Of a stretch of DNA of 64,000 nucleotides, positions 1 to 3,000 are shown in pieces (positions within the stretch are counted from its first letter, which is position 1; each line of letters starts with the position of its first letter). The stretch is taken from assembly GCF_041886205.1 (NCBI RefSeq), contig NZ_CP169029.1; one strand, written 5' to 3'. Made by a program: the position numbers. Origin of the DNA: Escherichia coli (GTDB lineage Bacteria; Pseudomonadota; Gammaproteobacteria; Enterobacterales; Enterobacteriaceae).

Positions 1-3000
1 CAGATAAATGATTCTTTCGGGATGTTATTACCTATGTATCGGGTTGCCGGCCCCATATCGCGATGAGTCAGTTTGAACCACGCTCTTGCAAATGCTCTCT
101 CAAAGGCTTTCGGATCGTTCAGGAAATGCGTCGTTATTTTTTTATATTCAGGATCGACTTTCAACGCAATATCTGTTGTAAACATCATTAGCGGATGCAA
201 TACCGATGGGTCATGTGCATCCTGAACAATGTTTGCTGCGTTTTTAGGTTTCCACTGATAAGCACCGGCAGGACTTTTATGCAGTTCCCACTCATATTTA
301 TAAAGATTTTGTAGATACTGCATCGTGAATTGCGTAGGAGAGGTGGACCAAGCACCTTCCAGACCACTAGTGATAGTATCTTTACCGTTGCCGGTACCGC
401 ACTTATTCTTCCATCCCAGTCCCTGTTCTTCGACTGGTGCACCATCAGGTGCAGCACCAATGCATTTTTCAGGAGAAGCGGCACCATGTGCTTTTCCGAA
501 CGTGTGCCCGCCAGCAATGAGCGCAACAGTTTCTTCATCATCCATGGCCATACGGGCGAAGGCTTCCCGGATATCTTTCGCAGAGGCAAGAGGATCTGGG
601 TTTCCCCCCGGACCTTCTGGATTGACATAAATCAGGCCCATCTGAGTGGCTGCCAAGGGTTTCTGAAGTTTCCCGTTTTTATCTCTATTATCGGATAGAG
701 GTTTGTTACCTGGTCCCCAGTATACCAAGTCGGACTCCCAGTCATCTTCTCTTCCACCGGCAAATCCCAGAGTCTTAAATCCCATAGATTCCAGAGCAAC
801 ATTCCCTGTAAGAACCATTAAATCTCCCCAAGAAATACTAGCGCCGTATTTTTTTTTGACCGGCCACAACAATCTGCGAGCTTTATCCAGATTAGCATTG
901 TCCGGCCAACTATTAAGAGGTTCAAAACGCTGTTGACCACCACTTGCTCCTCCTCGTCCATCATATGTCCGATATGTCCCGGCACCATGCCACGCCATTC
1001 GAATAAAGAAAGGGCCATAATTACCATAATCTGCTGGCCACCACTCCTGAGAGGTTGTCAATAATACTTTTATATCATTTTTAACATTTTCTATATCAAG
1101 TTTATTAAATTTGCTGGCATAATCAAAATCACGTCCTAAGGGGTTTGATTCAGGACTGTGTAATCTCAAAGGAGTTAAATCCAGCGTTTCAGGATAGTAG
1201 AATTTCTCAGTCCCCTTTTTATCATTAGCCACAGCAGGAGAGAGACTACCAGAGAGAGTCAAAAGAATTAAAATTGGAAGAGTTCTTTTTATCATAGAGT
1301 TGCTCCAGTGCAAGGAAAAATCTCAGCATATATACAAAAGATATTTTTCATATGCAACAGGAACCAACTATCATTGAAATCGGTTTTATGAATCAGTTTA
1401 TCACTTTAAATATTTTAAAGAATCACTCATATATATCATATTTTGTGATGTGCTTTGAACTCTTCTCGCTCTAAATCCCCGACACTTTTCTTTATAAAAC
1501 AGTTAAAATAAACAGTATCAATAAGTTATTTGCCAATATTTGAGTGTTACATATTTATTTGGTATCTATTGATTAATATTTCTATATTTAATATATCCTT
1601 ATTTGTTATCTCATGTTTACTCCTTTATAAAATATAATTCTGTTTTATTGATATAAACAAAAAATGAGTAAATATAACATAGACAGAATATTAATACATT
1701 CAAAAAAAATACAATAATATTTATACGGTCTTGTATTTTATTCTTTTTTGTTGTTGCTAGTGGTGCATCCTGTTATTTAATTAATATAGGGATGGTGAAT
1801 TTAATATTTTTGCACAAAATATCATGATAGCACATGCAATAGAAGATCATCAGAGTTAATCTTTTGTGTTGTCTTTTTTACTAGTTATATTTCTGGAGCA
1901 GGTATAAATGAGTTATAAAAATAACTAACACCAGTGAATGAGTGAGTCTCTCCTGAAAAAAATAGTATTGAACACGACTGTTATATCTGATTACATGAAT
2001 TCTAAAATGAGATGATAAATGGAGTAAACTTATGAAATTAAAGTATCTGTCATGTATAATATTTTCCATCTCTGGCGATGGGGCATTAGTTCTGCCCCAG
2101 TTTTCTAATTTTTCATGACGTGTCAGCGAAATAGTAATGACACTATTTACACAATGAACTCCGCAGTTTTTCATACTCTTTGAACAATGTACGTTTGGTT
2201 TTGTAGCCATATTTATCCATTAACATAACTATCCATACAGAATATTTTCCCTCAGTTTTTTCAAGATTAAAGAAAGTATCGCATTCTTCCACCATCAACG
2301 TTCGACAGTCTGATAGCGCTTGTAAAATGACTTCACCAATACTCTGATTATCAGCCTTCGGTGGAAATAAGTGCGAAGGAAAGAGAGGAGCAGCAGCAAC
2401 CATCCCCTCCTTGTCAACGACGGGTAAAAAGTTGCTCTTCCGCAACTTGGGTGGATATTTTCATGCCAGTGGACTCATGCCCCTCTGCCTAAGTAGTTCA
2501 AATCCGGCTCAACCATACATCTGGCGTTTCAGCATCTTCAGGCGATTTACATGACCTTCGACAACACCATTACTCCAGCGACTGCTGATTGCCTCACATA
2601 TAGCCGCAACATCAGCTTCCATCCCCGCCGCCACGCGCCGAAGTTCAGTTGAACCGCTTTTGTGGACTCGAGTGAACCAACTGCTTAGCTGTGATTTATT
2701 TTGGGTTTTCAGAATACGGTAGAACTCGAGTGCCAGTTGCTGCGCTATTTTCAGCTCAGGTTCTTTTTCACACATCAGACTAATAAATCGGGAAGCATAA
2801 TTTTCTTCACCCCTGATTATTCTCCAGGGCATCAACCAGCGGCTTACCCGGGACACTGAAGGAAGTCTGGCGGCAGTAGTAACCGGTGGGCTCCAGCCTT
2901 TACGCCATTTGGCAACAGCATCCCTGAGGATGGTTTCACTGCCTGTAAACCCCCGGGCCACCATTTCCCGCCATATCCGGCTGGCGTTATAATTACCACT

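Follow-up and report, generated by a model that had tools for sequence, protein, structure and literature searches.

What is a catalase-peroxidase gene with an apparent export signal doing among insertion sequence (IS) elements in an Escherichia coli chromosome, and where did it come from? The question is raised by the left edge of a 64,000-nucleotide stretch of E. coli DNA (contig NZ_CP169029.1 of assembly GCF_041886205.1), which as a whole is called the window here. On the minus strand, an open reading frame (ORF) with its ATG at 1295-1293 reaches the first base without a stop codon and continues beyond the left edge of the window. This ORF had been taken in an initial annotation for a relative of katP, the catalase-peroxidase gene of the large virulence plasmid of enterohaemorrhagic E. 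coli (EHEC), and it had been left open whether the DNA was plasmid-derived or held a chromosomal homologue. The sequence evidence presented here indicates that positions 1-1295 are, with high probability, the promoter-proximal 58% of an intact and functional gene of the KatP family, which is chromosomal and whose product would be exported.

Results

A KatP-type enzyme in place of a second KatG

The window holds codons 1-431 of the 737 codons of the katP-like gene (1-1295, minus strand), and the 3' rest lies beyond the left edge. The full-length gene was read from an identical copy on another contig (L012) and from the near-identical one of E. coli JML285, whose chromosome is completely sequenced, and in both the ORF of 737 codons is intact. 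The window fragment is identical at 431 of 431 residues to a protein of 737 amino acids (P0122, the exact allele) and differs in one residue from the JML285 copy. Family models agree on what is encoded: the fragment matches Pfam family PF00141 (E 3e-43), the full-length copy scores well above the cut-offs of the NCBIfam model TIGR00198, 'catalase/peroxidase HPI' (1068 bits, cut-off 770), and of NF011635 (1205 bits, cut-off 981), and solved KatG structures match the protein at E about 1e-288. Two tandem peroxidase-like domains are seen in the full-length copies, and the window covers only the N-terminal haem domain, with all the haem-domain catalytic residues falling inside its 431 codons. In an alignment with KatP variants and K-12 KatG, the distal R99, W102 and H103, the proximal H264 and the cross-link residues Y223 and M249 are invariant, and so are D132, W316, D375 and R412; their assignment follows the established numbering equivalence with Mycobacterium tuberculosis KatG.

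Comparison with KatP and KatG, as the initial annotation had proposed, showed that the fragment is the closer relative of KatP, and a better fit to cytoplasmic KatG was not seen. BLASTP aligned it with KatP of the pO157 type from residue 1 at 91% identity (392/431), whereas the alignment with K-12 KatG began only at residue 29 and reached 58%. Over the full length, identities are 87% to pO157 KatP (737 residues), 88-89% to the Citrobacter and Raoultella proteins, 75% to Yersinia KatY, 72% to the Salmonella protein and 55% to K-12 KatG. In a neighbour-joining tree with K-12 KatG as the outgroup, the protein has a branch of its own in a KatP subclade (members 85-89% identity) that also holds pO157 KatP, Escherichia albertii KatP, a second E. 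coli plasmid type and the proteins of Citrobacter braakii and Raoultella planticola, and the Yersinia KatY, Salmonella and Burkholderia proteins lie outside this subclade.

Automatic annotation nevertheless names the gene 'katG: catalase/peroxidase HPI', and the protein also satisfies the KatG equivalog model; one could take it for the usual cytoplasmic KatG, or a second copy of that enzyme, in which a wrongly assigned upstream start codon gives the look of a signal peptide. We give this reading next to no credence. It was rejected on the identity to KatP, on the N-terminal extension, which the KatP/KatY clade shares in sequence as well as in hydrophobic character, and on a Shine-Dalgarno sequence, GGAG, that stands 7 nucleotides before the ATG (1303-1306, minus strand) and is conserved in six katP-type upstream regions. 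Furthermore, true katG is found at the metF-yijE locus in 5425 of 5426 complete E. coli genomes, and the katP-like gene is therefore an extra paralogue. By every feature that can be tested in a sequence, the protein belongs to the catalase-peroxidase family and, within it, to the periplasmic KatP/KatY group.

Predicted export

The first 23 codons (1227-1295, minus strand) encode a predicted Sec-type signal peptide, recognized by its charge, its hydrophobic core and the residues at -3 and -1. The N-terminus has two basic residues, a hydrophobic core of 14 residues and an A-V-A site after which cleavage is predicted. Averaged over 10 residues, the core has a Kyte-Doolittle value of 2.5, whereas KatG has -0.4; a twin-arginine motif and a lipobox are both absent. 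The extension is kept in KatP, in KatY and in the Citrobacter, Raoultella, Salmonella and Burkholderia relatives, and K-12 KatG is without it. KatP has been described as periplasmic (PMC3523812). Since the signal-peptide features are conserved and KatP is so described, export of this allele is well supported as a prediction, in line with the signal peptide that had been noted at the start.

Divergence from the plasmid katP

One explanation for a katP-like gene at this position is that the segment is DNA of a pO157-type virulence plasmid that was integrated recently. In complete E. coli genomes, the canonical module of katP and a downstream cytochrome b562 gene is on plasmids in 486 of the 489 places where it occurs, with 3 on chromosomes; IS66 and ISL3 elements flank the katP-like gene; and a remnant of the 5' end of stcE, another gene of the pO157 type, lies about 615 bp upstream, all of which would fit such an origin. 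However, nucleotide identity to pO157 is only about 77% and is confined to the 2.7-kb katP-cytochrome b562 module, with borders at the stop codon of the cytochrome b562 gene and at 67 nucleotides upstream of the katP ATG, and what the flanks share with pO157 is limited to short, shuffled fragments. Compared with pO157 katP, dS is about 1.6, which is near saturation, and dN/dS is 0.046; therefore the split is old and purifying selection has been strong. No plasmid copy above the 80-90% band of protein identity was found in PLSDB, nothing of a plasmid backbone, such as genes for replication or transfer, lies nearby, and in JML285 the segment belongs to an island at tRNA-Phe that carries a tyrosine integrase. 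On the strength of the divergence and of the borders of the shared module, a recent plasmid origin was rejected, and we consider it highly improbable. Of the two origins that the initial annotation had offered, integrated plasmid DNA and a chromosomal homologue, it is the second that stands: the katP-like gene is a chromosomal homologue, an old and divergent relative of the plasmid KatP, and not a recent integration.

The composition of the gene differs from that of its chromosomal surroundings. Its guanine-cytosine (GC) content is 42%, and 33% at third codon positions, whereas the core part of the window has 52.7%, and the gene is therefore foreign to E. coli. Among the 5426 complete E. coli genomes the allele occurs in one, JML285, and the canonical katP-b562 module in 482. 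The exact protein of 737 amino acids was found on 311 contigs and in 546 assembly-index blocks, three of them with contigs above 1 Mb. A third chromosomal katP-type allele, with 84% nucleotide identity to the window, was observed in the WGI31CT chromosome (L003 9469-11268); it has the same OxyR-like box as described below, an IS3 element cuts off its 3' end, and a Pef-type fimbrial operon and a tRNA-Thr gene are close by.

Position in the chromosome

The katP-like DNA is contiguous with a locus for contact-dependent growth inhibition (CDI) and with core chromosome, as had been noted initially. To the right of the IS66 element there are a VasL/ImpA gene, a NERD-UvrD helicase gene and the cdiBA locus with orphan modules (16.4-27.9 kb); the end of the island carries genes of the DUF932, antirestriction, RadC, YeeU-CbtA and DUF4942 types, and the core genes glnP-glnQ-ybiO-rlmF-fiu-dinG occupy 45.5-64 kb with up to 100% identity to complete genomes. 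Positions 1-11295 are 100% identical in five independent assemblies, on contigs of 208 kb, 208 kb, 225 kb, 373 kb and 5.13 Mb, the last of which is a chromosome. In addition, 10.1 kb of the window are present at 99.96% identity in the complete JML285 chromosome, in which a tyrosine integrase and tRNA-Phe are located about 32 kb beyond the katP-like gene, next to dicD-dsbD. Window and JML285 part ways after these 10.1 kb, and the katP segment is therefore a conserved block inside variable, mosaic islands.

A chromosomal context of this kind could also be an artefact of assembly in which a plasmid contig was joined to the chromosome through IS copies, since copies of IS66, ISL3, IS3 and IS21 are frequent points of breakage and joining, and short-read contigs do often end in this region. 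Against this, at least two of the five contigs go on for over 200 kb in the window's direction, and the junction between the island and glnP recurs in a few other complete genomes and in several draft assemblies. Because 11.3 kb are identical in five assemblies and 10.1 kb nearly so in the complete JML285, a misassembly is very unlikely indeed and was rejected.

The junction itself has some peculiarities. At about 45340-45650 the DUF4942 gene at the island end directly abuts glnP, and the window is without glnH, which precedes glnP in reference genomes; no tRNA was found at this junction. A junction at glnP here and an anchoring at tRNA-Phe in JML285 suggest that DNA was rearranged between islands or that integration took place at an unusual site. 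In a look-up of the exact DUF4942 protein the 5.13-Mb chromosome was not among the matches listed, and contiguity over the 64 kb is not directly confirmed for that chromosome. ARAGORN called a tRNA-Ser(GCU) of 85 nucleotides at 57864-57948 (minus strand), but as an integration site this was rejected, since the call lies within the dinG coding region and is probably a false positive. The last part of the window (60000-64000), within what is otherwise core DNA, has a very low GC content (30-35%) and carries espX2, an effector gene, and a hypothetical gene, both of which other E. coli have here only in part of the cases.

Control region

About 100 nucleotides directly upstream of the katP-like gene form a conserved control region. 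It contains a candidate promoter (1329-1357, minus strand) composed of a -35 hexamer TTGCAT (1352-1357), a spacer of 17 nucleotides and a -10 hexamer TATATA (1329-1334), and both hexamers are kept across six katP-type variants. Abutting the -35 hexamer is a site that resembles the OxyR consensus, ATTCATAAAACCGATTTCAATGATAGTTGGTTCCTGT (1357-1393, minus strand), at -98 to -62 from the ATG. With 15 of the 20 specified bases it is the highest-scoring site on either strand of the 64-kb window, in which the next best has 13. Matches of 14-17 out of 20 occur at the same distance in eight related promoters in all, namely those of pO157 katP, three other E. coli or E. albertii variants, C. braakii, Yersinia katY, Salmonella and K-12 katG. 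Of these, K-12 katG is under OxyR control. The tetranucleotide-repeat consensus used for scoring is the one attributed to Toledano et al. 1994; for pO157 KatP, a 2009 paper by Uhlich reportedly describes a part in OxyR-regulated peroxide resistance. Transcription of the katP-like gene would thus most likely be OxyR-dependent.

The gene downstream

The gene that follows lies outside the window and was read from other copies (L011-L016 and JML285). It starts 38 nucleotides after the katP stop codon on the same strand and encodes a cytochrome b562 homologue of 129 amino acids (PF07361) with a signal peptide, in which the haem ligands M32 and H125 are invariant in the alignment; b562 chains in the PDB match it at E 3.6e-5. 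Its identity to E. coli CybC is 25%, a figure that depends on the CybC reference sequence used. A b562 gene directly after a katP-type gene is present in every E. coli and E. albertii variant, among them pO157, an E. albertii plasmid and the second E. coli plasmid type, and also in C. braakii, Salmonella and Yersinia, and in Yersinia a cytochrome b561 gene (PF01292) comes after b562. In Yersinia pestis, katY-cybC-cybB were found by reverse-transcription PCR to form one transcript (PMC2231364), and by analogy the katP-like and b562 genes are probably co-transcribed.

Between the katP stop codon and the start of the b562 gene (L012 12219-12243) there is a perfect 11-bp GC hairpin, CACAGGGGGAG TCT CCCCCTGT, which reads as an intrinsic terminator on the opposite strand only. 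The coding strand has no U-tract, so the hairpin may stabilise the mRNA or act as an attenuator inside the operon.

In Burkholderia ambifaria and Trinickia caryophylli (L021 6284-6742, L024 5242-5703), the position of b562 is taken by a gene for a pseudoazurin-like cupredoxin (PF00127) of 152-153 amino acids, which has a signal peptide and the C-x2-H-x4-M copper motif. Three other relatives have no gene for a small redox protein downstream. As a control set, a scan of genome contigs with generic KatG peptides was used, in which 80 distant KatGs (58-67% identity) were listed, none of them from Enterobacterales. Among the matches listed, 13 signal-bearing KatGs from other phyla had neither a b562 nor a cupredoxin gene downstream; therefore the pairing is restricted to a lineage and is not general to secreted KatGs.

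DNA upstream of the gene

Beyond the control region there is an AT-rich non-coding spacer (1394-1907) with no ORF of at least 50 amino acids, and the GC content of positions 1-2000 is 38%; no Rfam family was found in 1-6500 at E<=1. The stcE-like remnant mentioned above lies on the plus strand at 1908-2083 and consists of a promoter and the first ~28 codons, with the ATG at 1995 in the alignment and in-frame stops. These ~175 bp have about 79-80% identity to the 5' end of stcE, which codes for an M66 glycomucinase, and the matching stcE ends are on E. coli plasmids and chromosomes alike; the stub hints only at an older and distant mobile-DNA ancestry shared with mosaics of the EHEC-plasmid type. 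Next is an orphan, frameshifted gene for CDI immunity (cdiI; 2085-2445, minus strand; PF07262), in which two adjoining ORFs match profile positions 21-100 and 94-126 and whose counterpart in JML285 is annotated as a CDI immunity protein. The 5' end of this cdiI overlaps the left inverted repeat of an ISL3-family element (2412-4100, minus strand), which was identified by PF01610 and has terminal inverted repeats of 42 nucleotides (2412-2453 and 4059-4100). The ISL3 transposase is frameshifted into ORFs at 2509-3747 and 3754-4005, and it is annotated as frameshifted in JML285 as well. Genes of the IS66 family follow on the plus strand (4272-6054), identified by profile matches to PF05717, PF03050, PF13817, PF13005 and PF13007: tnpA (4272-4601), tnpB (4585-4977) and a short tnpC (5023-6054), whose product has 343 amino acids against about 523 in ISCro1. 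The ISL3 and IS66 neighbours reported in the initial annotation are thus real, although they are not directly adjacent to the katP-like gene; AT-rich spacer and the remnants of genes fill the ~1.1 kb in between.

In such surroundings the katP-like gene could itself be a decaying pseudogene, or a silent passenger in a degraded, IS-ridden island. The ISL3 transposase and cdiI are frameshifted, stcE is reduced to a stub, tnpC is short, the related WGI31CT allele has lost its 3' end to IS3, and the AT-rich DNA upstream could be silenced by H-NS. Against this, both JML285 and the exact allele have the full-length ORF in intact form, the unchanged protein recurs on the hundreds of contigs counted above, dN/dS is low, all catalytic residues are kept, and promoter, OxyR-like box and ribosome-binding site are conserved. 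That the gene is dead or silent seems very improbable to us, and an intact, functional gene remains the preferred reading.

Discussion

Taken together, the features of this locus suggest how the katP-like gene would act in the cell. On peroxide stress, OxyR would activate its transcription from the site beside the weak -35 hexamer, and the protein would be exported by the Sec pathway, like EHEC KatP and Yersinia KatY, and would gain its haem in the periplasm. Exogenous H2O2 would be broken down there, by catalase as well as peroxidase chemistry, before it enters the cell. The enzyme would in this way supplement cytoplasmic KatG, which is present in almost all E. coli. Together with b562 the gene forms a two-gene module of low GC content that represents a separate, old branch of the KatP subclade, is kept by strong purifying selection and resides in an IS-rich chromosomal island.

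Some observations weigh against this proposal. The window contains no more than 58% of the gene, and for an intact C-terminal domain one has to rely on the identical copies found elsewhere. The signal peptide was judged with a hand-made heuristic and not with a trained predictor, the OxyR-like site matches the consensus at no more than 15 of 20 bases, and the weak candidate -35 hexamer scored below the threshold of the promoter scan. As for the second gene, its product reaches 70 bits with NF011632, which is below the curated cut-off of 130, and it evolves fast, with 53% identity to the pO157 copy and a dN/dS of 0.23; moreover, the strong 11-bp GC hairpin between katP and b562 could still lower read-through.

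The closest known system is KatP of the EHEC O157:H7 plasmid pO157, described by Brunder et al. 1996 according to the passages of PMC2811833 and PMC3523812 that cite it. Both proteins belong to the same subclade and share the length of 737 residues, the catalytic residues and the architecture of a 23-residue signal peptide, and both genes have an OxyR-like box at about -100, a b562 gene downstream and IS elements at their flanks. They differ in that the gene described here is in a chromosomal genomic island and the other on an IncF plasmid, in b562 partners that are 53% identical, in flanks that are unrelated apart from short shuffled fragments, and in frequency (1/5426 against 482/5426 complete genomes). 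In the sense of a marker for the EHEC large plasmid, the gene is not KatP, being chromosomal and 77% identical to the reference in nucleotides and 87% in protein.

KatY (antigen 5) of Y. pestis and Yersinia pseudotuberculosis resembles the katP-like protein in being chromosomal, signal-bearing and 737 amino acids long, with 75% identity, a b562 gene directly downstream and an OxyR-like box at -98. Unlike the E. coli module, the Yersinia locus has the cytochrome b561 gene as a third member, and katY is placed among core metabolic genes and not in an IS-rich island. Thermoregulation has been reported for KatY. K-12 KatG shares with the katP-like protein the two-domain catalase-peroxidase family, the active-site residues and an OxyR-consensus match at a similar distance, but it is cytoplasmic and without a signal peptide, its gene has a GC content of 56%, lies at metF-yijE and has no b562 neighbour, and identity is 55-58%. 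The 'catalase-peroxidase 2' proteins of B. ambifaria and T. caryophylli, with 69-71% identity, also have a signal peptide and, on the same strand, a downstream gene for a small periplasmic carrier; in their case, however, the carrier is of the pseudoazurin-like PF00127 type and not b562, GC content is high and the context is core chromosome.

The position after the catalase-peroxidase gene is thus held by two unrelated periplasmic electron carriers, which favours a role as redox partner over one in haem delivery and suggests that the b562 homologue may be a redox partner of the KatP-type enzyme. Bacterial cytochrome c peroxidase (Ccp) is a periplasmic haem peroxidase that receives electrons from a small soluble cytochrome c or from pseudoazurin. 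The katP-b562 and katG2-pseudoazurin gene pairs share this layout, but the likeness is one of analogy only, since Ccp belongs to an unrelated protein family. A bolder proposal, drawn from the conserved pairing with a small carrier, is that these secreted enzymes work in vivo mainly as donor-dependent peroxidases, with electrons passing from the quinol pool through membrane b561 and b562, or through pseudoazurin, to KatP or KatY and so to H2O2. We offer it tentatively and think it rather unlikely; KatG enzymes can dismutate H2O2 without any donor. If it were true, the process would resemble cytochrome c peroxidase respiration and would give soluble cytochrome b562 its first physiological role. 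To our knowledge, soluble cytochrome b562 has no assigned function, and our literature search found nothing that links katP with cybC, or cytochrome b562 with catalase-peroxidase.

In the literature we searched, no paper describing this katP-like allele was found, and a paper on pheU/pheV islands does not mention the gene. One comparison of Shiga toxin-producing E. coli lists 'catalase/peroxidase' beside hemagglutinins, a type VI secretion system and RadC among the genes specific to strain MHI813, which may be the same island. The allele is a rare chromosomal addition to the known KatP family, for which the ordinary explanation holds.

Its practical weight comes from the use of katP as a marker of the EHEC virulence plasmid. 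The chromosomal allele, on record on hundreds of E. coli contigs, is divergent by ~20% in nucleotides and can be missed by PCR or hybridisation, and in genome-based virulence typing it can be mis-scored as plasmid carriage. For the biology of the family, the findings present katP-cytochrome b562 as an old two-gene module, mobile between plasmids and islands across Enterobacterales, and not as a speciality of pO157, and the conserved presence of a small redox protein next to the catalase-peroxidase gives a testable lead to the function of cytochrome b562.

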